From the UHGV virus genome UHGV-0242533: a stretch of DNA of 64,000 nucleotides; one strand, written 5' to 3'. Made by a program: the position numbers and the translations under genes. Below are positions 9,983 through 63,968 of the stretch, piece after piece. The notes beneath the pieces are model-generated. The model made no database searches and was not told where the DNA came from. It worked only from the letters and a program-made list of their open reading frames with translations. How positions within the stretch are numbered: the first letter of the stretch is position 1; the number at the start of each line of letters is the position of its first letter. The stretch comes from a virus.

Positions 9983-10229
9983 TTGTATCTCCCTTGCTGT
10001 AATCTTTGTATGTTTCTACTTTGTAAGTGCGGAATGCTCTGAAGAAGAGCCAACCTAAGCTACTCACATCAATTGTGATATCGAAATCTGTATCATCATC
10101 TAAATCAACAAGACGACCTAAGCATGTAGCTTCCATCCCTTCTTCAGAGTCACTGTTGACTACGAAAGCGTATGTCTCAGTTCTGAACCGAGGCACCAAC
10201 TCTGATAAAAAGTCTAATACTAAATTCAT
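9975..10229 (-). CDS. Hypothetical protein (84 aa)
   Basis: ORF track; first gene of the minus-strand operon. Confidence 0.4.
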   Translation of the reverse strand: MNLVLDFLSELVPRFRTETYAFVVNSDSEEGMEATCLGRLVDLDDDTDFDITIDVSSLGWLFFRAFRTYKVETYKDYSKGDTNE

Positions 10230-10248
10230 AATTCTTCTCCTCTGAATA

Positions 10249-10392
10249 AAAGTATAAAGGGCACATCATAAGATCAACCCGTAAAGGCCACGTCATACCA
10301 ACAACCCGTGTACGCTGAAGTAAAGGGCATGTCATAAAGGGGACTTCATGTTAAGGCACCCTCACATTAAGGCCATGTCATTAGTCATACTT
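10249..10392. repeat. Array of about six degenerate direct repeats (AAAGGSCAYRTCAT-like)
   Basis: Read directly from the sequence: aaagggcacatcat, aaaggccacgtcat, aaagggcatgtcat, gggacttcatgt, aaggcaccctcacatt, aaggccatgtcat. Confidence 0.5.
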
Positions 10393-10769
10393 GATACACC
10401 TTGCTATAGAGAAGCAGATGAATAAACAGAAGACTATTACTAACCAGAATATCCATTCCATTAAGGTCTGTCCATCCATGTGCTGTGTTTAAGCTTACCA
10501 CATTTACTACATCTCCAAGTGGACTTATAAAGGGTGTGAACTCTTTCATCCCCGTAAGCTTTGTGTATCCGATAGTACTCATGATCACATTTGAATTGCT
10601 TAATGATTAACTTAATTTTCCACATAAATTCTCTTTCAACCTTATATATAAGAGTTTAAAATTCTGATTTGACCGAATGGGGCTAGCCGCTCGCCGCGCG
10701 TTTCCTAAAAAGGGGGAGTCCTCATTTAAAAAAGGGTTATTGGCAATGCCTTTACCTTCCCTTTACATG

Positions 10770-11340
10770 TTCCACCTTTCCCCGTGCCTACTCCCCGTAG
10801 TTATTCCCCCGTGTATCCACACCACATAAATGGTGGGGCATACTTTTATGCCTCTGTATACTACCCAATACATTACCTACCCGTTTATTTAGTTCCCCTT
10901 TAAAGAGTGGATGAGAGGCCAGCACTGTATAAAGGTCTGTATAATGATTAGATTAAGGCACTATGAATAAGCTAATAACACCCCCTAGTTACTACCCCAT
11001 TCCCCCCATAGTTTGATTGTAAATAGTTTCAATAGTTGTTATTATGAGTGCAATATATGATGGGTGCATGGAATGCACAGCTACGAAGTAGCGTTGTATG
11101 TATGTATTAATTAAGTGGAAAGATTGATACTTTCTTTTATGTTCTTTCTTTTTCAGCGTACCTGAGCGTAAGCGAAGGGTGAGTACGTAGTACGAACGGT
11201 CTTTGATGTTTGAGTAGATGATTTTGGTTAAGTGGTATATTACTACCGCACTATCTGGCTATCCTTCCCCGTGGTCTGTTCTGCGGTTGTGTGTTCCCCG
11301 TCCTATATAGATAGTAGAATTAATTCACCCGTGGTCTTGC
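10770..11340. repeat. ORF-poor region with recurring C-rich motif TTCCCCGTG(G)
   Basis: About six copies (tttccccgtgcc, actccccgtag, ttcccccgtg, ccttccccgtggtc, gttccccgtcc, tcacccgtggtc) between the divergent late and early blocks. Confidence 0.4.
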
Positions 11341-11559
11341 TTTCCTTATTAGGTAGTGGTAAATTGAATCTATCGATTGAGTGGTTGGAGTAGTAGAAAT
11401 GATTATCTTAGTAATGTTGGTGCTGGCTGTAGCGTTTCCTTTGCTTGCTCTGATTGTTTGTGAAGTGGTTGAGTTATTCACTGATAAAGGGTTAGAAGTT
11501 GTTGATAAACCAAGCAAATTTGATGGCGTGAAATTTAGTAAAAAAGTTGAAATTAGTTG

Positions 11560-11588
11560 TTGACATGTTAGGTAATAAGAAGTATAGT
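11560..11588 (+). promoter_or_regulatory. Sigma70-like early promoter
   Basis: TTGACA, 17 nt spacer, TATAGT. Confidence 0.5.
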
Positions 11589-11629
11589 TATCTCATTGAA
11601 ACGAAGTATACTAACTAAAGGGGTCAATC

Positions 11630-12106
11630 ATGAATAAGGCAAACTTTGTAATCGGTGCTCTGGTATTAACCTTCGGTAGTATGGCTATCGCTGACAAGAT
11701 TGCTAGCGCTCCAGTTGCTCAAGCTGCTGTAGTTATGACTGATGCTGCTGATACATTCGTTAGCAACGCTCCTAAAGGTTGGATGGTTTGTAAAGGATTG
11801 GATTCAGATAACGTCACTACGTTGATGAAAGTTAAATTATCTAACGTAACCAATCGTGGTATGATTTTGTCTACTCGTACACTTGACAATCAGAACAATG
11901 AGGATATTCTTCTTTCCCGTAAAGACAATGACCCTGAGTTGATTACCTTTGGCGATGTGCAGACTATCAAAGGTTCTAAAGTTGTGACTAATCTTGTAAC
12001 GTATGGTACAATGCAAGAAACCATGTTAGCCACTTCCGTTTATGCTGCTGATAACAGTATTTGGACGTTCCGCTTTCAGATGGGTGATTGTGTTAAAGCA
12101 AAATAG
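11630..12106 (+). CDS. Secreted protein with signal peptide (158 aa)
   Basis: N-terminal MNKANFVIGALVLTFGSMAIA signal-like segment; RBS aaagggg. Confidence 0.55.
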   Translation: MNKANFVIGALVLTFGSMAIADKIASAPVAQAAVVMTDAADTFVSNAPKGWMVCKGLDSDNVTTLMKVKLSNVTNRGMILSTRTLDNQNNEDILLSRKDNDPELITFGDVQTIKGSKVVTNLVTYGTMQETMLATSVYAADNSIWTFRFQMGDCVKAK

Positions 12107-12109
12107 TTG

Positions 12110-12138
12110 TTGACACGGTTATAGATTGGCAGTATTAT
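12110..12138 (+). promoter_or_regulatory. Sigma70-like early promoter
   Basis: TTGACA, 17 nt spacer, TATTAT. Confidence 0.5.
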
Positions 12139-12173
12139 TACTTCATCAAGACAACATTAAAGGAATCAAGACA

Positions 12174-12503
12174 ATGAAAACCCTAATCGCATCTGCTCTT
12201 TTATCTGTAGCTGTTCTTTCAACTGTTGGATGTTCTTCTTCTCCGCGTCCTAACGGTTGGTGTGCTCTGGAAGTTGAAGGCACTTGTGTGATGCGTTGGA
12301 AAGATGGCGTTAAGGTTCCTGCTGGTGAGATTGACATGAAGTACGAAGGTGCTAGCTGTTCTAATGGTGGGTCTGTTGATGAAAAAGCCTATCGTGAGCG
12401 TGATATGAAAACACAAGCCGATTGGAAGAAGTCAGATTTTATCTCCCGAGCAACTCATTGCGGTGGCAATACTTCCGTTAAGGGTAAAGAATGGGACATT
12501 TAA
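12174..12503 (+). CDS. Lipoprotein (start at internal ATG 12174 preferred over ORF-track 12126)
   Basis: MKTLIASALLSVAVLSTVGC lipobox-type signal; RBS aagga; paralog of the 21091 gene. Confidence 0.55.
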   Translation: MKTLIASALLSVAVLSTVGCSSSPRPNGWCALEVEGTCVMRWKDGVKVPAGEIDMKYEGASCSNGGSVDEKAYRERDMKTQADWKKSDFISRATHCGGNTSVKGKEWDI

Positions 12504-12607
12504 AAAGATTAGTTTGCAATACTAGTTCTAACGTACTATCTTTGATTTTCACCGTGATTGCTACTGCAATTGCTTACTATGTTCTTGTTGTTTTGGGAGT
12601 GTGACTT

Positions 12608-12871
12608 ATGACTAAAGAGTACAGCTACACTATTCCCACCCGTAACTATGGCGATATTGACTTTTCTTACACTGACACATCTGACAAGTGTTTAATCTTG
12701 TTCGTTAGTGGTGATAATATTAATGCGGTGGAGTTTCCTGCTGTTGCTCTAATCATGGATGACGTTAAAGCTGGTCATTATCTAGCGCAACGTGGGGTTC
12801 TTCTGTCACTGGAAGAAATTAAATTGCTTAGAGTATCACTCTTTGAAGGTAAAGGCAACGATGAAGAATGA
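12608..12871 (+). CDS. Hypothetical protein (87 aa)
   Basis: ORF track; RBS gggag. Confidence 0.45.
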   Translation: MTKEYSYTIPTRNYGDIDFSYTDTSDKCLILFVSGDNINAVEFPAVALIMDDVKAGHYLAQRGVLLSLEEIKLLRVSLFEGKGNDEE

Positions 12872-13442
12872 TTATTTTTGGCGGTGCTTGTTCATTGCTA
12901 CAGTGGTGCTATTCGTCGCTGATATGCTTTACTCTTACGTTCTTTAAGGCCTGAGTGTGCTGTTTTTGTTTGTGTTTGTCGTGGGCTTCATTTCTTTAAA
13001 TTATTTACTGATTGTTGCCGCTCTGGATATTCTTAATCTCAATACTAAAGGTTGATTGCTATGTGGTTTATTAAATTCTTAGGCTTAATCTTTCTTCTTT
13101 ATTGTGCCGTAGTCATGCCTATGGTCATAATTTATCTGATTCTATAATCCTTCCTGTAAGCCTCCTAGTGAGGCTTTTCTCGTTTCTAAGGTGATTGTAT
13201 GCCTTCCTCCCTTTTAGCTCGTTGTGATGCTTCTGAGAGCGTCAAATAGTGCTTTACAAGCCTGTTTTAGTGTGTTATTCGCGTGCGCGTTCCTTTATAC
13301 CTCCCTTCCCTGAAAAAATAATCGAAATAGGTGTTGCTTTCCTCTATCACTTCCACTATCATCTATTCATCGGTTAAGCAGTACCAAGTAGACAACCTGA
13401 TAAGTCGTACGAAAAACAGGTAATCGATAAGAAATAAAAAGA

Positions 13443-13470
13443 TTGACAAGGTATCCAAACGTAGTAAGAT
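13443..13470 (+). promoter_or_regulatory. Strong sigma70-like promoter P1
   Basis: A-rich UP-like tract, TTGACA, 16 nt spacer, TAAGAT. Confidence 0.6.
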
Positions 13471-13590
13471 GGGTATCAGAAACAAAGCAAGGAAACTTGC
13501 AAATGCTCTTTAAAAACTTATCATCTTGCCCTTTCGCAAAGATTCACGCGAGATAAGGGAAAGGAATTCAAAGAAGATGATAAAAAAGAG

Positions 13591-13618
13591 TTGACAAGGT
13601 AATCCAGTGAGTTATAAT
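13591..13618 (+). promoter_or_regulatory. Strong sigma70-like promoter P2
   Basis: A-rich tract, TTGACA, 16 nt spacer, TATAAT. Confidence 0.65.
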
Positions 13619-13766
13619 GGTTGCCAGTTAGCAGATACACAGCTAACATGTTCTTTAAAAATATGACCTGATTCACTAGCCTAGCCGCTTAGTAATCCTC
13701 AATCAAATATAGCTGATTGATATATCCTCCCAATAAAGGGAACGACGAAAAAGATTAAAAAGATGG

Positions 13767-13795
13767 TTGACAGGCACTGAGAGTTAGGGCATAAT
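13767..13795 (+). promoter_or_regulatory. Strong sigma70-like promoter P3
   Basis: A-rich tract, TTGACA, 17 nt spacer, CATAAT. Confidence 0.6.
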
Positions 13796-14716
13796 GAGCA
13801 CATTAGCTAAGGGAAACATTCCGAAGCGAAGCGAGACAACGGCTAACAGTTGCATAGCGTGAGCAAACACGCTGATAGATTTACCGCTCTTTAACAATAT
13901 AAACGTTCTTCTATATCGGTTGAATATGCTTGATGATAATAACCATCGGAAAGCATACCAGATAAAACGGTGTAAGACTCTCTAGACTATCAGAGGAAAC
14001 AGTCTTGCAATCCCTTACTGGAAACGTCACCACTGATAAATGGATTCACTGAGTGCACGCAAAGACTTAAGCTAATCGCCCACGGTTAAGGGTAGCGGCG
14101 GTCATCGCTAACAAGGCGCTACAGTGAAAGAAGTTAATCAGGGTAGACAAGTCCGACAAATTAACGCCCAATTGAGGGCGGCGGGGAGCGGTTAAAAAGT
14201 GGCAAATTGCTATTTAACAATAAGGTTTAGTGTGAACGTTTACGATGTGAACGGCTTGAGATTCGTCTTACGATGAAAGTACATAGTCGGTTTATGTAGT
14301 AAACTCGCTGAAAGATATCAAACGTCGGAATACTAGACGGTTAATGACTCTTTCGCAATAGTCTCCCGTAGTGGGCGATGGCTAGCGATTGAGAGTTAAT
14401 ACAAAAGGATAGGCGAGAGCGAAAGCAAAGTAGACGATATTGCCGACGGTTACAATAACGTAACTAATTAGAGTCGGACACACTGCCTTATTGTGATGAT
14501 TGATCATCGCTATCAGGTCGGCTTTGTTTATAGCGACTAATTAAAGATACCAGATGAAACATCACGGATAAGGAGGCGGCAAGGTTAACTCCTGATAAGA
14601 CCGCCTCACTTACCTGTAACTGCTCAATAATGAGTGGTTAGAGTTAAGTTAATAGTGACTTAAACAAGCTCATAGAGAGCGGGGCATAGTGCCCTAAACA
14701 TTAAAAGGTAAATATC

Positions 14717-15616
14717 ATGGCTAAGATCTTCACTCTGGTTAACGAATCTGGTTTTAACGCTCTGGCTAACAACATCCGCAGCAACAACGCAGCGATTAAG
14801 CAAGACGTTTCTAACTTCCTGTTAGGGCACTTGCAGCACTTCCGTAGCAACGGTAAAAAGCTGGACGTATTACAAGCGGCGGTTGACTTCCTGTTAACTG
14901 AACGCTTCCGCGATATGGATGTTATTGCTACCGCAATCACTTTCTTAACCCCTATCAAGTTTAACACTGATGCGGCGAATGGTCGTAAAAAGTGGATTAA
15001 TCTGGAAGGCGAAGCGAAAGCGAAAGAAGATGCGAAAGAAGCGCAAATTAAAACCAAAATGGAACAAAACCGTGCCCGCTGGTCAAACGCTTTCGAAAAC
15101 TTCGCGTTAGGTCGTGAAATTGAAGTTGATAACCCTAACTTCTACAAAGGTTGCAATGACAACGTAGCGGCACACCTGCAAATCCCGGCGAAAAACAAGG
15201 AAGACTTTAACCAAGATATTTACGCTTTGGTTGAACGCTTGAATGCAATCCGTATTGAAGCCAAATTACTGGCTGATGAGCGCAACGGCGCAACTAGCGA
15301 TAACACTATCGCCCTGAGTGAAGAAGTTGGGAAGGTTAAAAAGTCCTTTGATTCACTCATCAAGAAAGTCACGGCCTCAACGGTAGCGATCTCGGATGAT
15401 TATCTGATGAACGCATCAAGCAAGGAATTAGAATCACTCGATTCATACGCTGATGAAATGGAAAAGACTGTTGCAGCTATGCAGGAGAAGTTAGAAAGTC
15501 TGCGCGGTCGTATCTCTTCAACGGTTGCTACCCGTACCGAACAAGCGGCGAAAGCAGAAGAGGAAGAAGTATTGCGTAAAGCGGCTGAAATTATGGCGGC
15601 ACGTCAGGCGGCATAA
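14717..15616 (+). CDS. Early protein of unknown function (299 aa)
   Basis: First sizeable gene downstream of three tandem strong promoters and a roughly 0.9 kb leader; followed by a strong terminator. Confidence 0.6.
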   Translation: MAKIFTLVNESGFNALANNIRSNNAAIKQDVSNFLLGHLQHFRSNGKKLDVLQAAVDFLLTERFRDMDVIATAITFLTPIKFNTDAANGRKKWINLEGEAKAKEDAKEAQIKTKMEQNRARWSNAFENFALGREIEVDNPNFYKGCNDNVAAHLQIPAKNKEDFNQDIYALVERLNAIRIEAKLLADERNGATSDNTIALSEEVGKVKKSFDSLIKKVTASTVAISDDYLMNASSKELESLDSYADEMEKTVAAMQEKLESLRGRISSTVATRTEQAAKAEEEEVLRKAAEIMAARQAA

Positions 15617-15638
15617 GTAAGACAATTTGAATAAACAT

Positions 15639-15675
15639 AAGGCGCTATCTTAACGGGTAGCGCCTTTTCTTTTAT
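15639..15675 (+). terminator. Intrinsic terminator
   Basis: Hairpin aaggcgcta...tagcgcctt followed by a T-run. Confidence 0.7.
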
Positions 15676-15718
15676 CAGTGCATTGATTCAGTGCATTAAT
15701 CAAAGAATCTAATCAAAG

Positions 15719-15946
15719 GTGACGATCATGTTAATTACACATACCACGATTTATAGGAATCTTGTCAATGGTCAACATTACCGCCTATCTAAAAAGTATG
15801 GCGTTGAATGTAAATGTGTTATTACCGGTGAATGGTATCCGTCGCCAATGAAGATTGAAACGCTGGAACGTGAAGCGATCAGTTATATTATCACGCAAGA
15901 AACAACGTTAGGCCGTATCTTAAGAAAGCTGGGATTGAGAAAATGA
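15719..15946 (+). CDS. Hypothetical small protein (start GTG 15719 or ATG 15728)
   Basis: ORF track; RBS aaaggtga. Confidence 0.45.
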   Translation: MTIMLITHTTIYRNLVNGQHYRLSKKYGVECKCVITGEWYPSPMKIETLEREAISYIITQETTLGRILRKLGLRK

Positions 15947-16167
15947 TATTCAGTAGTAATTTTGGCAAGTGTCCTATTTGTGAGAAACATCGCAGCACGG
16001 GAAACCATCGCAAATGTAGTAAGATATTACAGCGCCAACGTGATAACAAACATTGGGATACTGTACACACTAACCAGCGTAAAGAAGAAGTTAGGAAAAT
16101 GGCTGTTAAAGCGTCATTTGCTCAATCAACCCGTATTGAACACATTCAAAGGTATCAAGCATCATGA
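15943..16167 (+). CDS. Small basic Cys/His-containing protein (74 aa)
   Basis: ATGA start/stop overlaps at both ends (translational coupling); CPICEKH...H motif. Confidence 0.5.
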   Translation: MIFSSNFGKCPICEKHRSTGNHRKCSKILQRQRDNKHWDTVHTNQRKEEVRKMAVKASFAQSTRIEHIQRYQAS

Positions 16168-16373
16168 TCACTAACATTTCAGAGTTTAAGAAAGCTCCCT
16201 CTCGTCTGTTAGGCCGTCGTGTAGTGTATCTTTATAGCAATAAAGGTAAATGTACAACCGGACGAATTACAACGGTGAGTAGTGCCAATAAGAAACTACT
16301 AAAATTATGTGTAACTATGGATGACGGTACAATCCTTCTACGTAGTTGGAAATCGTTTAGTTTACTTGATTAA
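16164..16373 (+). CDS. Hypothetical small protein (69 aa)
   Basis: ORF track; ATGA overlap with upstream gene. Confidence 0.45.
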   Translation: MITNISEFKKAPSRLLGRRVVYLYSNKGKCTTGRITTVSSANKKLLKLCVTMDDGTILLRSWKSFSLLD

Positions 16374-16442
16374 GTTATTTGTTCAAGCCTATCGCCTTGA
16401 TGGGCTTGCCCGATATAACTTATCACTGAAAGGAATAAGATT

Positions 16443-16886
16443 GTGGCTAAATCTAAAATCAGCATGAAGGGCGGGCGTTGTTTTGCTATCTCTGAACTAG
16501 AGAAAGAGAAACCGAAGGCAACTAATCACGTTAGTAAGCGTAGTTTAAAACGTCGTGCTGCAAAGGCTGAGGCTGAATCCCATGTTCCTTCCAGTGTGGC
16601 AAAGCGTGTAGGCCATCGTGTCCATCGGGCTGATGCGTTGTTGTTGGCTGATCATAAACGTTCTTTGTTAAAGAGCGGGGGAGCTAAAACAGAAGAGGAG
16701 AAGAAGTTAGAAATCTTCTGTAATGGTCGCACCCGTGGTAAACAGAAGTTTAAAGGTAGCACGAAAGACCCGCAGGCTTTCCCTAAGACAAGCCAGTGTG
16801 CACCTGATGTTTTCTACGCAGATAGTAAACACAAGTGGGGCGTTGAAAAATACATTGACCCCATCAAAGAGGCAAGGGTTAAGTAG
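16443..16886 (+). CDS. Highly basic protein (147 aa)
   Basis: Lys/Arg-rich; RBS aaaggaataag before GTG/ATG. Confidence 0.45.
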   Translation: MAKSKISMKGGRCFAISELEKEKPKATNHVSKRSLKRRAAKAEAESHVPSSVAKRVGHRVHRADALLLADHKRSLLKSGGAKTEEEKKLEIFCNGRTRGKQKFKGSTKDPQAFPKTSQCAPDVFYADSKHKWGVEKYIDPIKEARVK

Positions 16887-16900
16887 TAGGAATATAGCCC

Positions 16901-16921
16901 CCTCTTTTAGTACTATGACGC
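16901..16921 (+). promoter_or_regulatory. Conserved motif CCTCTTTTAGTACTATGACGC (copy 1)
   Basis: 17-mer core identical to a second copy at 23736-23756; partial third copy near 13206. Confidence 0.4.
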
Positions 16922-16966
16922 TCTTTCTGTAGCGTCGTGCCCTCTCCCCATTTGAAGCTTCCGCAT

Positions 16967-17020
16967 AGCCGCCTTTGAGCGGCTTTTTGCGTTACCGCCT
17001 CCTTAATTGGAGGCTTTTTT
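16967..17020 (+). terminator. Two tandem intrinsic terminators
   Basis: agccgc-loop-gcggct+TTTTT and gcctcc-loop-ggaggc+TTTTTT. Confidence 0.65.
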
Positions 17021-17046
17021 GTATCTATTATATAGGAAACCATGAA

Positions 17047-17769
17047 ATGAAAGCATTTGCATTGTCAGCTATTCTAGTTTTATCTGCCATTAGTGCCCCA
17101 TCCTTTGCTCATTCTGACAAATGCTCACACTCTAAACAGTGTGAAGTCCAGCAGGGGCCGAAAGGTGATAAAGGAGAACAGGGTATTCAAGGCGAACAAG
17201 GTCCGAAAGGTGACAAGGGTGATCGCGGAGAGCAGGGCTTAAAAGGTGATACTGGATCGGCTGGCATCAATGGTACTAATGGCATTGATGGTAAAGATGG
17301 CATTGATGGTAAAGATGGCGCTCAAGGTGAAAAAGGTGATTCTGGTGCAGATGGTAAGAAAGGCGAAACTGGCCTAACTGGTGCAGCAGGTTTGAATGGC
17401 GTTGACGGATTAAATGGCAAAAATGGTAAAGATGCAGATATGTCTGCCGTTAATGCTAACGCCAAATCTATCAAAGCTCTGGAACAATCCACCAACAAAC
17501 GTTTTGCTTCTTTGCAAAAACAAGTAGACCGTAACCGTGATCATGCCTCTGCTGGTATTTCTGGCGTGGCTGCAATGGCTAACATCCCGCAAGTAAGTCA
17601 AGGATCTGCTTTCTCTGTTGGTGCTGGGGTAGGTGCTTACGATGGTGAATCTGCTCTTGCTATTGGTGTTAGTGCTCGTTTCAATGAAAACGTAGTAACT
17701 AAAGCATCAGTGGCAATGACTTCAGAGAGTGACGCTGTTCTGGGCGCTGGTGTAAGTTACGAGTGGTAA
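17047..17769 (+). CDS. Collagen-like protein with signal peptide and YadA-like C-terminal anchor
   Basis: Start taken at internal ATG with RBS. Signal MKAFALSAILVLSAISAPSFA; long GXX collagen-like repeat run; C-terminus SAGISGVAAMANIPQV...SALAIGVS...VTKASVAMT...GAGVSYEW resembles the trimeric-autotransporter anchor. Confidence 0.6.
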   Translation: MKAFALSAILVLSAISAPSFAHSDKCSHSKQCEVQQGPKGDKGEQGIQGEQGPKGDKGDRGEQGLKGDTGSAGINGTNGIDGKDGIDGKDGAQGEKGDSGADGKKGETGLTGAAGLNGVDGLNGKNGKDADMSAVNANAKSIKALEQSTNKRFASLQKQVDRNRDHASAGISGVAAMANIPQVSQGSAFSVGAGVGAYDGESALAIGVSARFNENVVTKASVAMTSESDAVLGAGVSYEW

Positions 17770-17879
17770 GATAGTGCCTCTCCCGAAAGGGAGGGGTGTT
17801 TCTATAAGCATCTTTTCGAGGGTGTTTATTGAAACAACAAAACAGGAGGTAGCAAGTTCTGATAACAACGGCACAGCTA

Positions 17880-18269
17880 ATGTTGACATTGACTATTTAT
17901 TATGAGGCAGGGAATCAGCCAACCGCATGTAAGGCTTTAGTTGCGGATACCGTGATAAATAGAATGGCCCAACGAAAACTGACCGCTGAACAGGTGATAA
18001 GACAAAAGAACCAGTTTGAGTGGATTCCGGTACTATTAAAACAGGAGAAACCTTATAAACGTTATGTAAAGCTGATTCGTGATAAAAATCCGATGACTAA
18101 GCAAGCCATTGGAGAAAGCGAGCGGCTAGCTAAACGTGCCCTTAAGAAGAATTATGTTCCTCTGTACAGTGGGACTTACTTTCAGAGTAAGAGCGAAGGG
18201 GTGCCAAAATGGTATGCCAATCCTATGTATTGTGGTGATTTAGTGTTCGATAATAGCTCTAGGGAATAA
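17880..18269 (+). CDS. Putative SleB-like cell-wall hydrolase domain protein (129 aa)
   Basis: YYEAG...ALVADTVINR...QFEW resembles the SleB/Hydrolase_2 family; no good SD. Confidence 0.35.
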   Translation: MLTLTIYYEAGNQPTACKALVADTVINRMAQRKLTAEQVIRQKNQFEWIPVLLKQEKPYKRYVKLIRDKNPMTKQAIGESERLAKRALKKNYVPLYSGTYFQSKSEGVPKWYANPMYCGDLVFDNSSRE

Positions 18270-18468
18270 TCACTAGTGCCAGATTTGACAAACTAAATTC
18301 CTTTATAAACCAACCACTTAGTAAATTTATTGAAAAAGATGGTAGTATTCTGGGACTATGGGTAATGCTCTGTATATAGACCTTTGAAAATTTCTTAGAA
18401 AATAAGTTTACTAAATATAACTTACTTAAATAATATTACTTTTAATCTCTGATAAAGGGTAAAATGAT

Positions 18469-18765
18469 ATGACTTTAGAAGTATATAAATTCCTTTTTGT
18501 AAGCTGTTTAACTATCAGCGTTATAGGATTTATTGTTCTCAGAAACAAAGCAGCAAGCTGGGAGAGAATGTATAAATCTCTAGTACGAGTAGATGAGATG
18601 TATAATGAGAAGGTTAAAGCAACTCTTAACGATCTTATCATGCAAGTTGAAGACAGAAACAAGCGTCTTCAGAATCTCAACCATGAAGTATTACGCCTTG
18701 CTCGTGCTAATGAAGACTTGCGAGTGGCTATTGCTAAGCAGCAGGAGGTTAATAGTGAAGCATGA
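18469..18765 (+). CDS. Membrane/coiled-coil small protein (98 aa)
   Basis: N-terminal hydrophobic helix; RBS aaagggt. Confidence 0.5.
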   Translation: MTLEVYKFLFVSCLTISVIGFIVLRNKAASWERMYKSLVRVDEMYNEKVKATLNDLIMQVEDRNKRLQNLNHEVLRLARANEDLRVAIAKQQEVNSEA

Positions 18766-19012
18766 TATCAATACAGCACCTGTGGTTAAGCAGCTTAAAG
18801 ACCTAAGAGTGGGGGATGTTTTTGAAACTGTACCACATAAGAATAAGTTGTATCTTGTAGTAAAACTTGATTCTTCAACTGTTTATCAAGCCCAATGGAA
18901 ACCTGATAAAAAGGTAGTAGTAGATCTTACTTCAGATAAAGTAACAATGTTGGGAAAAGATACTGTTGTTCAGATAGTTGATAATGTTCGTCTTACTAAT
19001 AAGGTGGATTAA
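18755..19012 (+). CDS. Small protein of GDVF-motif family (GTG start with AGGAGG SD)
   Basis: Strong SD gcaggagg 6 nt before GTG; motif LRVGDVFETV...LYLVVKLD. Confidence 0.5.
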   Translation: MKHDINTAPVVKQLKDLRVGDVFETVPHKNKLYLVVKLDSSTVYQAQWKPDKKVVVDLTSDKVTMLGKDTVVQIVDNVRLTNKVD

Positions 19013-19014
19013 CA

Positions 19015-19248
19015 GTGAAAGTCAATATTAAGCATGATCATACAACGATTCGCTTAACTAACATGAAGCCTGGAGTTTTGTTTTCTTTCCGAGGCATTCT
19101 TTATATCAGAACAGATTCCACATCTGACTATCATGTTAAATGTGTTAATGTGGTATCCGGAACACTGACCGGTATCAACCGAGATGAAATCTGCCAAGTA
19201 CGCAGCGATCTCCACATAACTAACATAGAGACTAAAGATGAAGATTGA
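19015..19248 (+). CDS. Small protein, GDVF-family-like (77 aa)
   Basis: ORF track; motif PGVLFSF...YIRTD. Confidence 0.45.
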   Translation: MKVNIKHDHTTIRLTNMKPGVLFSFRGILYIRTDSTSDYHVKCVNVVSGTLTGINRDEICQVRSDLHITNIETKDED

Positions 19249-19489
19249 TCTTGAGTTTAAGAATCCAGAGCTGAAAGTGGGTGATTTGAAACTTGGAGAT
19301 GTATTCCAAGTGAAGGCAACATGTATTGACCATTACATGATTGTCCAGCTATACACACCACATGTGTCAGAGACTGATCTTCGGGAGGGTTGTGTGGTTC
19401 TTAGTTTACGTACTAATCAAGTGATGAAACTAGACTCAAACTTACCTGTTTCGGTTATCCATAATGTAGTAATTACCAATAAAGGTTAA
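19238..19489 (+). CDS. Small protein, GDVF family (83 aa)
   Basis: Motif LKLGDVFQVK. Confidence 0.45.
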   Translation: MKIDLEFKNPELKVGDLKLGDVFQVKATCIDHYMIVQLYTPHVSETDLREGCVVLSLRTNQVMKLDSNLPVSVIHNVVITNKG

Positions 19490-19491
19490 TT

Positions 19492-19812
19492 ATGTCAGTG
19501 TCCACTCGAATAACCTGTAAGCCTAAAGTGAGTATTCGTGCACAGCTTCAAAACTGTACAGGGGTAGTTCACTTGGAGTTTGAACACAGTGGAAGTCGGT
19601 ATAACGAAGGATTCACCGTAACCATCACCTCTGCATGGTTTAATTTGGTTCTCCTTCCTGATGAGGTATGCGCTGCAATTGGTGGTGTTAAGAAGGGTAG
19701 TTTAAACCTTATGTCAACCCCTGTAGGAAATGAATTGCTTTCTCTGGTTCAGAAAGGCGTATATAAAATGAACCTTATGTTAGATGCAATTACTGAAGAG
19801 AGTAAGGAGTGA
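19492..19812 (+). CDS. Hypothetical protein (106 aa)
   Basis: ORF track. Confidence 0.45.
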   Translation: MSVSTRITCKPKVSIRAQLQNCTGVVHLEFEHSGSRYNEGFTVTITSAWFNLVLLPDEVCAAIGGVKKGSLNLMSTPVGNELLSLVQKGVYKMNLMLDAITEESKE

Positions 19813-19816
19813 TTAA

Positions 19817-20035
19817 GTGGAAATTAAAGTAGTTGATTATCCTAAATATGCAAATGCAGAAGACGTTAAAGGTGGTGATGTTTTCTCTTACGATAGACGT
19901 TTCTGGCTGATGTTAGAAGATAAAACTCCTGATGGTTTGTGTAAGGCCGCCGATCTGAACAGTGGTTCTGTTGAAGTCTTTGGTCTATCAACAACTGTTA
20001 TGCCACGTCCTGATCTGTGTTTATCCCAAAAGTAA
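19817..20035 (+). CDS. Small protein, GDVF family (72 aa)
   Basis: Motif VKGGDVFSYDRRFWLMLED. Confidence 0.45.
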   Translation: MEIKVVDYPKYANAEDVKGGDVFSYDRRFWLMLEDKTPDGLCKAADLNSGSVEVFGLSTTVMPRPDLCLSQK

Positions 20036-20042
20036 CACCGAC

Positions 20043-20148
20043 TTATAGCCCTTGTGTTTATCAGAGGGCTATGTGAGGGTGTTCCTCATTAACTTATTAA
20101 TTCAGGCATATGCCACACCGCTAGGGAGAGCTTGCTCGAACATCCGGT
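20043..20148 (+). ncRNA. Conserved structured non-coding element, copy A (hairpin plus GCTAGGGAGAG...CTCGAACATCCG)
   Basis: Hairpin tagccct...agggcta then tgtgag; downstream ccgctagggagagcttgctcgaacatccggtg. A homologous element lies at 24293-24407. Confidence 0.35.
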
Positions 20149-20388
20149 GTTAGACTAAAACCTGTTAATTTTCGAAAGACTTTCTGATATGTAGGGGTAC
20201 GTATCGGTTTGGGATTCAGGAGACTTCCTAGGGGTAGGGAGTCTTCACCAGTTGGAATAAAAGGTAGCTCTAGAACCTGAACTCTTAGGCAGAGAAGGTC
20301 GGCAATGAATAGGCTACCAAGAAATTGGTGGCCTTTGTTGTTTTAATTAAGGGACAGCTCTTACTTAAACTAACAAGAGGAAGCTCAA

Positions 20389-20565
20389 ATGTCTAAGCAA
20401 ACAATCAAGAATACACAAGCTGGTTACTCTTATGTTAACTCTCCTTGCTGTGGTGCTCGTGTTAATCTGGTTAAGGAAGAGGTTCGTATCGTTCAGCGTG
20501 GCGCTACTGTTGTTCGTTCATGCTGTGTCTGTGGTAATGATATTTTTATCAAAGGTAAAGTATGA
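20389..20565 (+). CDS. Small zinc-ribbon protein (58 aa; below ORF-track cutoff)
   Basis: RBS aagagg; translation contains CC...CC...C clusters. Confidence 0.4.
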   Translation: MSKQTIKNTQAGYSYVNSPCCGARVNLVKEEVRIVQRGATVVRSCCVCGNDIFIKGKV

Positions 20566-20813
20566 AAAACTTTCAAGCTGCACCAATAACTAAAGTGATC
20601 GAAGTTGATGGTGTGATGATGACTGTTCCTCTGAACACTCGTTACATCGCAATTGACAAGATGGGTTATGTATGGGCTTGGAAGATTAAGCCTAGCTATA
20701 ACGCATTGTTTGATGAGTTTGTTTGTACTGGTACTTACAGTCCTACATTCTTAGGTTTGTTTGGAGAGTTTGATGGTAAGTATAAAATCATCACACTCCC
20801 TGCTTGTGCTTGA
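20562..20813 (+). CDS. Hypothetical protein (83 aa)
   Basis: ORF track; ATGA overlap with upstream ORF. Confidence 0.45.
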   Translation: MKNFQAAPITKVIEVDGVMMTVPLNTRYIAIDKMGYVWAWKIKPSYNALFDEFVCTGTYSPTFLGLFGEFDGKYKIITLPACA

Positions 20814-20820
20814 GGTTAGC

Positions 20821-20985
20821 ATGTTAAAGTGGTTTAAACGTCTATTCCATCTGCATGATTGGGAGACAATAAAAGAAATTCGTTTACACATATACAATGA
20901 GATCGGTCAAATAGAAGACACAGGTACTCGTTATATACTTCGATGTAAAACATGTGGTCATATCACCAAGAGAGATATGATCTAA
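20821..20985 (+). CDS. Small Cys/His protein (internal ATG of ORF 20761..20985)
   Basis: MLKWFKR...CKTCGH motif. Confidence 0.35.
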   Translation: MLKWFKRLFHLHDWETIKEIRLHIYNEIGQIEDTGTRYILRCKTCGHITKRDMI

Positions 20986-21090
20986 ATAGCTCTGCGCCGT
21001 TAGCTCAATTGTATAGAGCAGTTTCCTTCTAAGAAATTGGTTGGAGGTTAGAATCCTCCACGGTGCGCCAAATTGAATGAGAGGTGTGTT

Positions 21091-21390
21091 ATGTCATGGG
21101 GTGGTGTAATATCCTTAATCTGTATCTTCCTTGTCTGCATAGCCCTTACAGGCTGCGTACATAGCCGTCCTGATGGATGGTGTGCAGTAGCAGTGGAAGG
21201 TGTTTGTGTTTCTCGCTGGCATAAAGGTGAGAAGGTTCCTTCTGGTGAAATAGATATGCGCTGGAATGAAGCAACCTGTTCTAATGCTAACCCCTCTGTC
21301 AACGAAGAGAAATCTACACCGGATAATGTTGTGATTGATACAGCGTTGTGGTGTGGTGGCTCTGTAACAACAACCGGTAAGGAGTGGTGA
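21091..21390 (+). CDS. Lipoprotein, paralog of 12174..12503
   Basis: Signal plus lipobox ...CIALTGC; shared RPxGWCA-EG-CV-RW--G-KVP-GEIDM----A-CSN motif with the 12174 protein. Confidence 0.55.
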   Translation: MSWGGVISLICIFLVCIALTGCVHSRPDGWCAVAVEGVCVSRWHKGEKVPSGEIDMRWNEATCSNANPSVNEEKSTPDNVVIDTALWCGGSVTTTGKEW

Positions 21391-21391
21391 T

Positions 21392-21589
21392 ATGAATTAC
21401 ACATCTACAAAGGTGCTAATTGATTCGATTAATAGCTCCTCAGAAGCTGTACAGGAGCGTTTAATACAAGATGTTAGCAATGACATTAAGTTCTTTGTTA
21501 AGAGCCGACTGTTAGGTTCTAAGGCTTATTACAGAGCTAAAGCAGAGCTTACAAAGAGGGTGTTTCTTTTACATGGTTTGGTATATTAA
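21392..21589 (+). CDS. Hypothetical protein (65 aa)
   Basis: ORF track. Confidence 0.4.
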   Translation: MNYTSTKVLIDSINSSSEAVQERLIQDVSNDIKFFVKSRLLGSKAYYRAKAELTKRVFLLHGLVY

Positions 21590-21598
21590 GGAACTTAT

Positions 21599-21820
21599 AT
21601 GAAACTAGACTCTAAGCAGTCACTTAAAACCGTTGAGCTGTCCACGCTGCCAAACGGAAGTATTTTTGGTCATGATAAACACTTCTGGATTAAAACAGAC
21701 ATCATAGACGATGGATATATCACCTGTGTCAATCTTTGGAACGGCTCAGTGGATGGCTATCGCCCTAGCACAAAGGTGGTACCTCAGCCCGATGCAAAGG
21801 CTATAGGTTTAGTTTACTAA
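21599..21820 (+). CDS. Small protein, GDVF-like family (73 aa)
   Basis: Motif LPNGSIFGHDKHFWIKTD. Confidence 0.45.
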   Translation: MKLDSKQSLKTVELSTLPNGSIFGHDKHFWIKTDIIDDGYITCVNLWNGSVDGYRPSTKVVPQPDAKAIGLVY

Positions 21821-21829
21821 GGAGCCTGT

Positions 21830-22003
21830 ATGAGTTGTTTTGGTGGCGGTGAAATAGACGACGATTATGACATGGAATCTAACGGCACATGTCCTGACTG
21901 TGGGTGCGAAACATTTGATGGAGTGTCAGTATATCCTACCTGTAGTTATTCACCAGTGATCTGTAAAACATGTGGAGATCAACCTTGTGATGAGTCTTGT
22001 TAG
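21830..22003 (+). CDS. Small Cys-rich protein (57 aa; below ORF-track cutoff)
   Basis: RBS aaggag; CPDCGC...C...CKTCGDQPCDESC. Confidence 0.4.
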   Translation: MSCFGGGEIDDDYDMESNGTCPDCGCETFDGVSVYPTCSYSPVICKTCGDQPCDESC

Positions 22004-22232
22004 TGTGTTAATAGCCTATCTGATAGGATCAGTAGTATCAGGTGTTCTGATTAAGATTATAGATGTTAAAGGAAATCAGTGTTTCCGAGGTTGGGATGGT
22101 GAGCCAGACCTTGGAAAGATAGCAGCTATGGTTTTCTTGTGGCCTATTATTGCTGTACTATTTATAGCACTCGTAGCATGGGCTGCTCTTTGGGATTTCA
22201 TCCTTCCTAACAAAAAGTATGAGGACTCATGA
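21972..22232 (+). CDS. Small membrane protein (likely start at internal ATG 21990)
   Basis: Two hydrophobic helices. Confidence 0.45.
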   Translation: MEINLVMSLVSVLIAYLIGSVVSGVLIKIIDVKGNQCFRGWDGEPDLGKIAAMVFLWPIIAVLFIALVAWAALWDFILPNKKYEDS

Positions 22233-22650
22233 CTAAAGAATTTTTAGAGTGGTTTGGTGATACCTTCAAAGAGTATCTATTCTCTCCAGAAGACTTTGAA
22301 GAACTGAAAACCTACACTTGGTTGGCTTGGAGAGATAGCCGACGAGAGATGAATAAGTAATATCGTGAAGGATTCTTACGAGAGTCCTTTGAGATAGGAC
22401 TTCAGATCTCCTATCAAACTAACATTCATGTAACTAGCCCATAAGGGCGTTACCCTTTAATAACCCAGCCCACTAAGGGGGCGGGAGTTTAGTGCTGGAT
22501 TAGCATAACGCTTATTCCTACAAAGGCAACCGATTGTTAGATCTTACATGCAATATTAATTAATAGGATAAGGGAGGATTCGTCCCCTCCCCCTATTTTA
22601 TTGAATCTTTATCTAAGCAAGTCTTATATAAATGTTTAATTGGAGGATGT

Positions 22651-50547: not shown

Positions 50548-51452
<905 letters not shown>

Positions 51453-62933: not shown

Positions 62934-63968
62934 TTATTGTATGCTTCTAAAAATCTTCCTAGCATCTAGGACTGGAATTTGAAGGGAGATAGCCCCACCA
63001 CCACCCATATCGTAGTTCCTATCCCACTGGAACATATATCGACCATACCCTGTACTAAAAGAAGACCCATTCATTATATGAGACCTTGCGTGTTGGAAAT
63101 ACCAACTACCAGCTTGACCTCTAATTGAACCAGCCCCACTAGTCAGAGGAATCATGGGGTACGTAAGCGTGGTGTTTCCACCGCTCATAGGCATAAATCG
63201 GTCAACCATAAAAGGTGTTCTGTAAGTAGAGAATACACACTGAGACCCGTTAGGTGAGTAAATATTCAATCCACCATTGTGAGTAGGAACTCCAGCTCCA
63301 TTACAAAACACGGCAATCCTTACGTTATTGATTGTTCCTGTCTGGTTATTGTTTCCGTTATCATATGTTCTATTTTGGTAAACACTAATAGTACGACTTC
63401 CTGAGTCATATAGAAGTCCCTGACCTCCAGACCAGTTAGCAAACACAGAAGCTCTTGACATATCAAAACCACTGATTGCTGGAATTTGCATAGAACCATT
63501 AATGTTTCCTTCCCAAGCCCAAATACATTGACCAACAACTCCAGCATCTGATATAGAGAAGTAATCAGCTGTGTTTGAAAAGGTTATCCCGTAGTTCCTA
63601 TTAGCTCTAGGCCATATTTGATATACGTTGAAAGCTACATCAAACAGTGGATTACTTCCGGGATCCATGTTTATACTAACCCTGAAAGTGGTATTGTTCA
63701 CAACACTGATGTTACTTACAACATACACATCAGGGACAAGGTTAGGAGGGACTTCCCATTGCCAACACAAAGACCCGGTTGGGACTATAATGATTTGGCC
63801 TGAGCCATCCCATCCAGAAATAGGGAAATCTCTACTACCTCCATTAAAGTTATAATTGCCACTAACCCTGTTTTTAAATTGAGGGAAAGTAGAATCACTG
63901 TCAATAAAAAGCTCAGCCGGAGAAGCTGGTCCCGGTCCGACTGGCGTTGTCCATATTCCATATGCCAT
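62934..63968 (-). CDS. Hypothetical structural protein (344 aa)
   Basis: ORF track; Gly/Asn/Ser-rich, beta-rich composition. Confidence 0.5.
   Translation of the reverse strand: MAYGIWTTPVGPGPASPAELFIDSDSTFPQFKNRVSGNYNFNGGSRDFPISGWDGSGQIIIVPTGSLCWQWEVPPNLVPDVYVVSNISVVNNTTFRVSINMDPGSNPLFDVAFNVYQIWPRANRNYGITFSNTADYFSISDAGVVGQCIWAWEGNINGSMQIPAISGFDMSRASVFANWSGGQGLLYDSGSRTISVYQNRTYDNGNNNQTGTINNVRIAVFCNGAGVPTHNGGLNIYSPNGSQCVFSTYRTPFMVDRFMPMSGGNTTLTYPMIPLTSGAGSIRGQAGSWYFQHARSHIMNGSSFSTGYGRYMFQWDRNYDMGGGGAISLQIPVLDARKIFRSIQ

Follow-up and report, generated by a model that had tools for sequence, protein, structure and literature searches.

Two Rtp45-family lipoproteins in a podovirus early region

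The stretch of DNA analyzed here (the window) comprises 64,000 nucleotides of the virus genome UHGV-0242533 and contains two plus-strand open reading frames (ORFs), named LipoA and LipoB, that encode small prolipoproteins. Based upon 90-95% DNA identity to phiEco32-like podoviruses (Kuravirus, Gordonclarkvirinae), the source of the window is a phiEco32-like Escherichia coli phage, a podovirus belonging to Kuravirus. Late genes occupy the minus strand at both window ends, and the plus strand carries early and middle genes between ~11.6 and 53 kb. The two genes are as follows:

12174..12503, plus strand: LipoA, 109-residue prolipoprotein of the Rtp45 family (PF24052); complete ORF, ends at a stop codon
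21091..21390, plus strand: LipoB, 99-residue prolipoprotein of the Rtp45 family (PF24052); complete ORF, ends at a stop codon

The original prediction, made from the letters and their ORFs, had described these as two paralogous early lipoproteins and had quoted a shared core (RP-GWCA..EG-CV-RW..G-KVP-GEIDM....A-CSN). The paralogy was borne out, with the pair aligning by BLASTP at 40% identity over 105 columns (E 3e-24), a value that sets chance similarity aside, and the quoted core was found in both proteins. No third lipoprotein copy was found by tblastn within the window, and exact-sequence look-up returned no record of the exact LipoA sequence.

Each protein begins with a hydrophobic segment that precedes a lipobox. 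In LipoA, the signal peptide (residues 1-19) ends in ..LSTVG-C20 (Cys20 codon 12231..12233), and in LipoB the corresponding sequence is ..IALTG-C22 (Cys22 codon 21154..21156). The residue at +2 is S in LipoA and V in LipoB, and is Asp in neither. A signal peptide with lipobox Cys had been predicted to be shared by the two; as a feature it is present in both, but the sequences themselves are dissimilar (5/16 identical). The LipoB start (ATG 21091) agrees with the MSWGG.. start of all orthologs and is preceded by a GAGAGG ribosome-binding site, and no promoter of its own was found for this gene. Directly before it lies a landmark:

20994..21070, plus strand: tRNA-Arg(tct), conserved immediately upstream of LipoB and of phiEco32 gp106

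An Rfam scan of 10000..22500 returned tRNA only. From its syntenic place directly after this tRNA-Arg, LipoB was identified as the positional ortholog of gp106 in phiEco32, where it is annotated as "putative phage lipoprotein". The phiEco32 gene cluster that runs in the opposite direction to the late genes was assigned to the early class by experiment (PMC8948821), and early expression of LipoB is expected from its synteny with that cluster. Together with the promoter-like site upstream of LipoA described below, this supports the predicted early timing.

In the profile hidden Markov model search that had been suggested alongside the original prediction, both proteins matched Pfam family PF24052 (Phage_lipoprotein; curated cut-off 27 bits) over its full length (model positions 1-80 of 80), LipoA with 105.3 bits (E 1.7e-30) and LipoB with 116.7 bits (E 4.3e-34); the score of Rtp45 itself is 128 bits. 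Both also matched PHROG 4281, to which no function has been assigned. A phmmer search of all PDB chains led to Rtp45 (9RPS chain D; E 5.3e-21 for LipoA and 5.8e-13 for LipoB). AlphaFold 2 (AF2) models were built on a 75-sequence alignment and reached a mean predicted local distance difference test score (pLDDT) of 83.5 for LipoA and 81.9 for LipoB. Using Foldseek against the PDB, these predicted models were matched to 9rps_D (probability 1.00; TM-score normalized to the target, 0.80 for LipoA and 0.77 for LipoB), and neither model gave any other match at E ≤ 1.

The likeness to Rtp45 extends through the signal peptide, lipobox Cys20, the RPDGWC...C core with C30-C38, the VPAGE(I/V)D strand, the C-terminal G-KEW strand, and the long beta-hairpin. 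C20, C30, and C38 of LipoA occupy the same positions as in Rtp45, and core residues 20-61, which contact LptD in Rtp45, are 62% identical between the two. The core disulfide pair is C30/C38 in LipoA and C31/C39 in LipoB. The family motifs RP(D/N)GWC-x7-C, VP(A/S)GE(I/V)D, and C-terminal G-(K/R)EW are present in both proteins; neither core Cys varies across the 19- and 75-sequence alignments, in which the other motif residues are invariant or nearly so. LipoA residues 1-75 are also 56% identical to the lipoprotein of the BASEL siphophage TheodorHerzl.

Homologs were collected with single-sequence queries, which returned 3 and 9 proteins, and with an alignment query, which returned 73. A lipobox-like sequence and its Cys are kept in all 75 collected family members (71 by a stricter search pattern), none of which has Asp at +2. 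Three Cys are found in 47 members (the 76-81-residue siphophage type, like Rtp45) and five Cys in 22. All database homologs are located on contigs of ≤100 kb, and a scan using one genome for each of 185,579 species gave a single match, on a 46.7-kb phage-sized contig. A prophage or bacterial origin was ruled out given that the homologs are essentially confined to phage-sized contigs. Membership of LipoA and LipoB in the Rtp45 family is near certain. The kind of protein is already known, with Rtp45 as its prototype and a Pfam family of its own. Rtp45 reportedly confers an exclusion phenotype in vivo.

A loop-bearing variant and an inserted second copy

Rtp45 has 76 residues, three Cys, and a tight hairpin turn, whereas LipoA and LipoB are of a 5-Cys type in which the tight turn of the long hairpin is replaced by an insertion between the two extra Cys. 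These insertions were delimited using alignments and the AF2 models:

12357..12461, plus strand: LipoA variable loop module, C62 to C96, 33 residues between the Cys
21277..21354, plus strand: LipoB variable loop module, C63 to C88, 24 residues between the Cys

In the AF2 models, the strands of the long hairpin span residues 51-64 and 94-106 of LipoA and residues 52-65 and 86-98 of LipoB. The extra Cys are cross-strand partners in this arrangement (62+96 = 64+94 in LipoA; 63+88 = 65+86 in LipoB), a placing that fits a second disulfide. On these models such a bond (C62-C96, C63-C88) may staple the base of the loop; pLDDT within the LipoB loop is 52-70.

Loop length between the Cys varies among alleles, with 18 residues in the phiEco32 type, 33 in the Bas86/NC-B/SU7 type (as in LipoA), and 8-16 in others. 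Alleles of the P0008/Bas86 type have a LipoB-type backbone and occupy the gp106 locus, but their loop shares 74% identity with that of LipoA, and allele P0003 combines a LipoA backbone with an unrelated loop. On these alignments, the loop is swapped as a module, or cassette, among alleles. This 5-Cys variant with cassette-like loop exchange is new. Over the core, LipoA is 72% identical to alleles of distant phages with SU10-type portals as compared to 62% to LipoB, and is equally near LipoB and Rtp45 (about 62% each). For LipoB, the closest allele found is P0004 (92% identity); identity to P0005, the near-identical cluster representative for phiEco32 gp106, is about 76-78%. LipoB and gp106 have the same locus and the same backbone and differ in the loop (24 as compared to 18 residues). 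In the literature searched, no function is assigned to gp106.

Among distant phages with SU10-type portals, L042 and L043 (10001..10264 in both) and L044 (10001..10285) likewise encode a PF24052 lipoprotein of the 5-Cys type. The place of this gene in L042 and L043, near the start of the early region, resembles that of LipoA, and the early regions of these phages also carry TerB/TerC/TerD and NAD-salvage genes.

LipoA is located within a ~500-bp insertion (12107..12607) that is absent from Bas89, in which homologs of the flanking 158-residue gene (window 11630..12106) and 87-residue gene (12608..12871) directly abut. Two further features belong to this insertion:

12110..12138, plus strand: promoter-like site of the sigma-70 type (TTGACA-17 nt-TATTAT; 11 of 12 positions), immediately preceding LipoA
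12491..12604, plus strand: 37-residue ORF MGHLKRLVCNTSSNVLSLIFTVIATAIAYYVLVVLGV, overlapping the LipoA end; basic N-terminus and one predicted transmembrane helix

The LipoA segment was not found in relatives by megablast. The same two-copy architecture is present in L009, a 74-kb Logan contig, where the promoter-like site is kept; it is absent from Bas89. Sites matching at least 11/12 of the sigma-70 consensus occur six times in the window, all on the plus strand and four of them at 11560-13795, as compared to 1.85 such sites in shuffled sequence (both strands together). The LipoA start was placed at ATG 12174, downstream of the promoter-like site; a longer start (TTG 12126) would fall within it.

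A search of the phage collection matched 379 records at 380 places. The best 60 of these records, all but two of them Kuravirus, have one lipoprotein copy each, and relative to the Kuravirus gp106 orthologs LipoA is an extra copy at another locus that occurs in none of these best 60 published records. This rare two-copy state, arising from a promoter-bearing insertion, is new.

The 37-residue ORF is probably a real small membrane protein co-inserted with LipoA, as judged from its conservation in L009, where the transmembrane half has seven synonymous changes and one V to A replacement and the in-frame stop is kept. No match to this ORF was found in phages by tblastn, probably because the query is short and hydrophobic. 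The 158-residue protein on the other side of LipoA (11630..12106, plus strand) has an N-terminal signal-peptide-like segment and its own 11/12 promoter-like site (11560..11588). It occurs in about 94 Kuravirus records at ≤50% identity, and for this reason it is considered another fast-diverging, probably exported early protein beside LipoA.

LptD as the predicted target

In the structural report (PMC12685063), Rtp45 is described as the superinfection-exclusion lipoprotein of siphophage Rtp and was solved by cryo-electron microscopy with LptDE/LptM, on the periplasmic side of the outer membrane. According to the same report, it has a Cys30-Cys38 disulfide and a long hairpin that extends up the LptD lumen, where it displaces extracellular loop EL4 and leaves the phage receptor-binding protein unable to bind. 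The original prediction had proposed that the two lipoproteins block a phage receptor and thereby exclude superinfecting phages. Given that LipoA and LipoB are clear homologs of Rtp45 with matching predicted folds, this is the function documented for the family prototype; the proposal gains support from the homology, the predicted fold, and the genome context, with LptD rather than FhuA as the predicted target. On homology and genome context, LipoA and LipoB are probably Rtp45-type superinfection-exclusion lipoproteins directed at LptD, a reading that we favor with some reserve. By analogy with Rtp45, their most likely role is to protect the infected cell against phages that bind LptD.

Under this reading, both genes would be transcribed early by the host RNA polymerase, LipoA from its own near-consensus sigma-70 promoter and LipoB within the early operon. 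The precursors would be exported, lipid-modified at the lipobox Cys, cleaved, and sorted to the outer membrane by the Lol system, with DsbA-type oxidation forming the core disulfide of each protein and the second disulfide fixing the base of the inserted loop. As for Rtp45, the mature proteins would bind at the periplasmic rim of the LptDE translocon and push the long beta-hairpin up the LptD lumen. The extracellular LptD loops would then be displaced and DUF6453-type receptor-binding proteins could no longer dock, leaving the infected cell and its debris unable to adsorb LptD-targeting phages, namely small siphophages on the same host and possibly the phage itself. Two copies that differ mainly in the hairpin-tip loop would most likely allow a broader set of receptor-binding-protein variants or LptD states to be blocked.

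The genome context rests on a second gene, listed here together with a lysis gene that bears on an alternative considered below:

62934..63968, minus strand: DUF6453 late protein of 344 residues, ortholog of SU10 gp19 (tblastn with Rtp44: E 2.6e-11 over 302 residues)
50548..50805: o-spanin homolog, 92% identical to the curated NJ01 o-spanin

The 344-residue protein matched Pfam PF20051 (DUF6453) with E 8e-25 (88 bits, cut-off 25) and PDB 9rpt_C with E 1.8e-9. DUF6453 takes in Rtp44 and the Oekolampad receptor protein, the latter having been solved on LptDE (9RPT). SU10 gp19, for which no role has been assigned, is encoded right after the tail-needle gene, and gp19 is present in Kuraviruses generally. 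The window protein is 69% identical to SU10 gp19, as compared to 94.5-98.8% for the adjoining gp20-24, which marks the gp19 gene as a divergence hot spot.

Lipoprotein and DUF6453 genes are closely linked in siphophages. Rtp, EC3a, and a Queuovirinae-like contig all have the lipoprotein gene immediately upstream of a DUF6453 gene, in an arrangement convergent with gpJ. Among 32 loci surveyed in IMG/VR, 27 were non-Kuravirus, and in 23 of these the DUF6453 gene lies directly downstream of the lipoprotein gene; in three more (Webervirus-like) it lies ~10 kb away. Seven BASEL siphophages, TheodorHerzl among them, carry the lipoprotein and DUF6453 module, and resistance to them maps to lptD (PMC8594841). 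The pairing of PF24052 and DUF6453 within one genome is thus common to the window phage and to the module of Oekolampad (superinfection-exclusion lipoprotein bas18_0026) and other BASEL phages with LptD-type receptor-binding proteins. In the siphophage module, a single operon downstream of gpJ contains both genes, and the central tail fiber is capped by the receptor protein, whereas in Kuravirus the two genes belong to different temporal classes.

The DUF6453 homolog in the same genome hints that LptD is relevant to Kuravirus entry, and this newly found co-occurrence makes LptD a candidate terminal receptor. The gp19 homolog may work together with LipoA and LipoB. It is possible, though we regard it as doubtful, that Kuraviruses use LptD at the terminal step of adsorption or DNA delivery, through the fast-evolving DUF6453 protein gp19; LipoA and LipoB would then be cognate self-exclusion factors, with the swapped loops and the divergent gp19 as two sides of an arms race. 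If gp19 is truly a non-virion protein, a variant of this would be a released LptD-binding protein that acts in phage-phage competition.

Several points weigh against LptD-directed exclusion. SU10 gp19 was not found in the virion by mass spectrometry of gel bands (PMC9509320, Suppl. Table 1), nor was it among the 34 proteins identified by shotgun mass spectrometry, in which gp16-18, gp20-24, and even the terminase were detected (PMC4281155); the cognate virion receptor protein is therefore not established. Although rtp45 is located immediately upstream of the receptor-protein gene rtp44, LipoA and LipoB are two genes in a podovirus early region, 41-50 kb from the DUF6453 gene and on the other strand, such that adjacency is lacking and co-occurrence within one genome is what was found. 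Kuraviruses are O-antigen-dependent and have no known protein receptor, and their short tail fibers presumably bind the cell surface or, on the analogy of T-even phages, the lipopolysaccharide (LPS) core (PMC11990801); in the literature searched, nothing tying Kuravirus to LptD or DUF6453 was found. Among the phages compared (not a phylogenetic comparison), loop type (short, medium, or long) showed no simple correspondence with the gp19 allele: Paul-type gp19 occurs with a short loop in Paul, 1-6af, and Ptacy1532, and with medium and long loops in the window phage. According to the authors of the Rtp45 structure (PMC12685063), AlphaFold 3 gave wrong predictions both for free Rtp45 and for the complex, and hence the AF2 models by themselves lend little weight.

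The inserted loop weighs on the same side, because 24-33 residues at the LptD-engaging part of the hairpin could change the target. It may be that the loop retargets the Kuravirus Cys-loop subfamily to another outer-membrane component, the real terminal receptor or entry site, and that action on LptD has been lost. Consistent with this, the insertion sits at the hairpin tip, which in Rtp45 contacts the receptor interior (PMC12685063), the lipoprotein genes are uncoupled from any receptor-protein gene, and Kuravirus lacks a known protein receptor. Retargeting is nevertheless judged unlikely, given the conserved core residues 20-61 (62% identity between LipoA and Rtp45), the DUF6453 homolog kept in the Kuravirus genome, and the siphophage contig L045, in which a 5-Cys loop-bearing member lies directly upstream of a DUF6453 gene and so makes this loop type compatible with an LptD-type module.

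Somewhat less likely again is a role in host takeover, in which plugging of LptD would stop the export of new LPS and O-antigen, altering the surface or weakening the envelope, with exclusion as a by-product. The Rtp45 hairpin occupies the LptD lumen (PMC12685063), O-antigen is the first receptor of Kuraviruses, and the neighborhood includes several other envelope-directed early genes (for a YadA-like autotransporter, for a cell-wall hydrolase, and for the secreted 158-residue protein), all of which would suit such a role. However, LPS already at the surface would stay through one latent period, the tight siphophage linkage to a receptor-binding-protein gene argues for receptor masking as the selected function, and an effect of Rtp45 on LPS transport was not found in the passages of PMC12685063 consulted.

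The original prediction had compared the two lipoproteins with T5 Llp, an analogy that holds for function and fails for homology. Like LipoA and LipoB, Llp (PDB 8A60) is an early small lipoprotein; it is located on the periplasmic side of the outer membrane and alters extracellular loops of a phage receptor (PMC9586334). Its target is FhuA, and it has no detectable sequence or fold relation to the pair, being unmatched by phmmer or Foldseek at E ≤ 10. The mechanisms also differ, with Llp acting allosterically through the plug and Rtp45 by steric displacement through the lumen. Cor of T1, phi80, and N15 is likewise a small lipoprotein, encoded near tail-tip genes and annotated as excluding phages with the same receptor. 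T1 Cor gave a weak match to PF24052 (17.7 bits) that is below the 27-bit cut-off, and it is FhuA-linked; hhalign with the family alignment covers residues 1-21 only, i.e., the signal peptide and lipobox. That LipoA and LipoB are FhuA-blocking lipoproteins of the Llp or Cor type, as their small size and early class might suggest, is thus already contradicted and very improbable, and Llp or Cor homology was rejected.

An outer-membrane spanin subunit (Rz1-like lysis lipoprotein) is the least credible reading: LipoA and LipoB are small lipoproteins and LipoA gave a weak PHROG match to an Rz-like spanin (signal peptide only, E 0.42), but this is contradicted and was ruled out by the separate o-spanin at 50548..50805 (the spanin pair of phiEco32 lies at 35.3-35.8 kb of its genome), by the lack of an i-spanin gene overlapping or adjoining LipoA or LipoB, and by the location of both genes in the early cluster, away from the lysis genes.

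With LptD-directed exclusion as the favored reading, phiEco32 gp106, an early gene conserved in Kuravirus and so far labeled just "putative lipoprotein", gains a testable function. A PF24052 lipoprotein in a podovirus early region, uncoupled from a receptor-protein gene, is new, and the LptD-type exclusion lipoprotein family would extend beyond small siphophages to include a variant with a putative second disulfide and a loop exchanged in the manner of a specificity cassette. The two halves of the siphophage LptD module, the receptor-protein family and the exclusion family, are thereby found together in a lineage of podoviruses (ES17, SU10 relatives) that has been used in phage-therapy work. 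LptD itself is conserved as well as essential, and phage proteins that bind either side of it could be useful in phage steering and as starting points for LptD inhibitors. Should the lipoproteins exclude unrelated LptD-dependent phages, this would bear on the design of phage cocktails.

Other genes of the early region

Among the neighboring small early proteins, Pfam was informative only for the YadA/collagen protein and the Hydrolase_2 protein. The former (16975..17769, plus strand) combines a signal peptide with collagen triple-helix repeats and a membrane anchor of the YadA type, i.e., the architecture of a trimeric autotransporter. Its gene is absent from the otherwise syntenic L009, and in phiEco32 records it is labeled "agglutinating adhesin" or "tail protein".

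LipoB is flanked by five paralogs of ~72-85 residues (18755..19012, 19015..19248, 19238..19489, 19817..20035, and 21599..21820, all plus strand), which were related by pairwise BLASTP (E 1e-9 to 2e-7) and had no Pfam match.

Downstream of the LipoA insertion, ~1.7 kb (12950..14716) is free of ORFs of at least 60 residues and contains two near-consensus sigma-70 promoters at 13591..13618 (12/12) and 13767..13795 (11/12). This gap is also unannotated in phiEco32 and EcP-vB, and Rfam returned nothing there.

An early SleB-like cell-wall hydrolase (Pfam Hydrolase_2) is encoded at 17880..18269 (plus strand) and is followed at 18469..18765 (plus strand) by a 98-residue protein with an N-terminal transmembrane segment and a coiled-coil-like C-terminus, an i-spanin-like shape. 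A long distance separates both genes from the lysis genes and from the real spanins, which lie near 50.5 kb.

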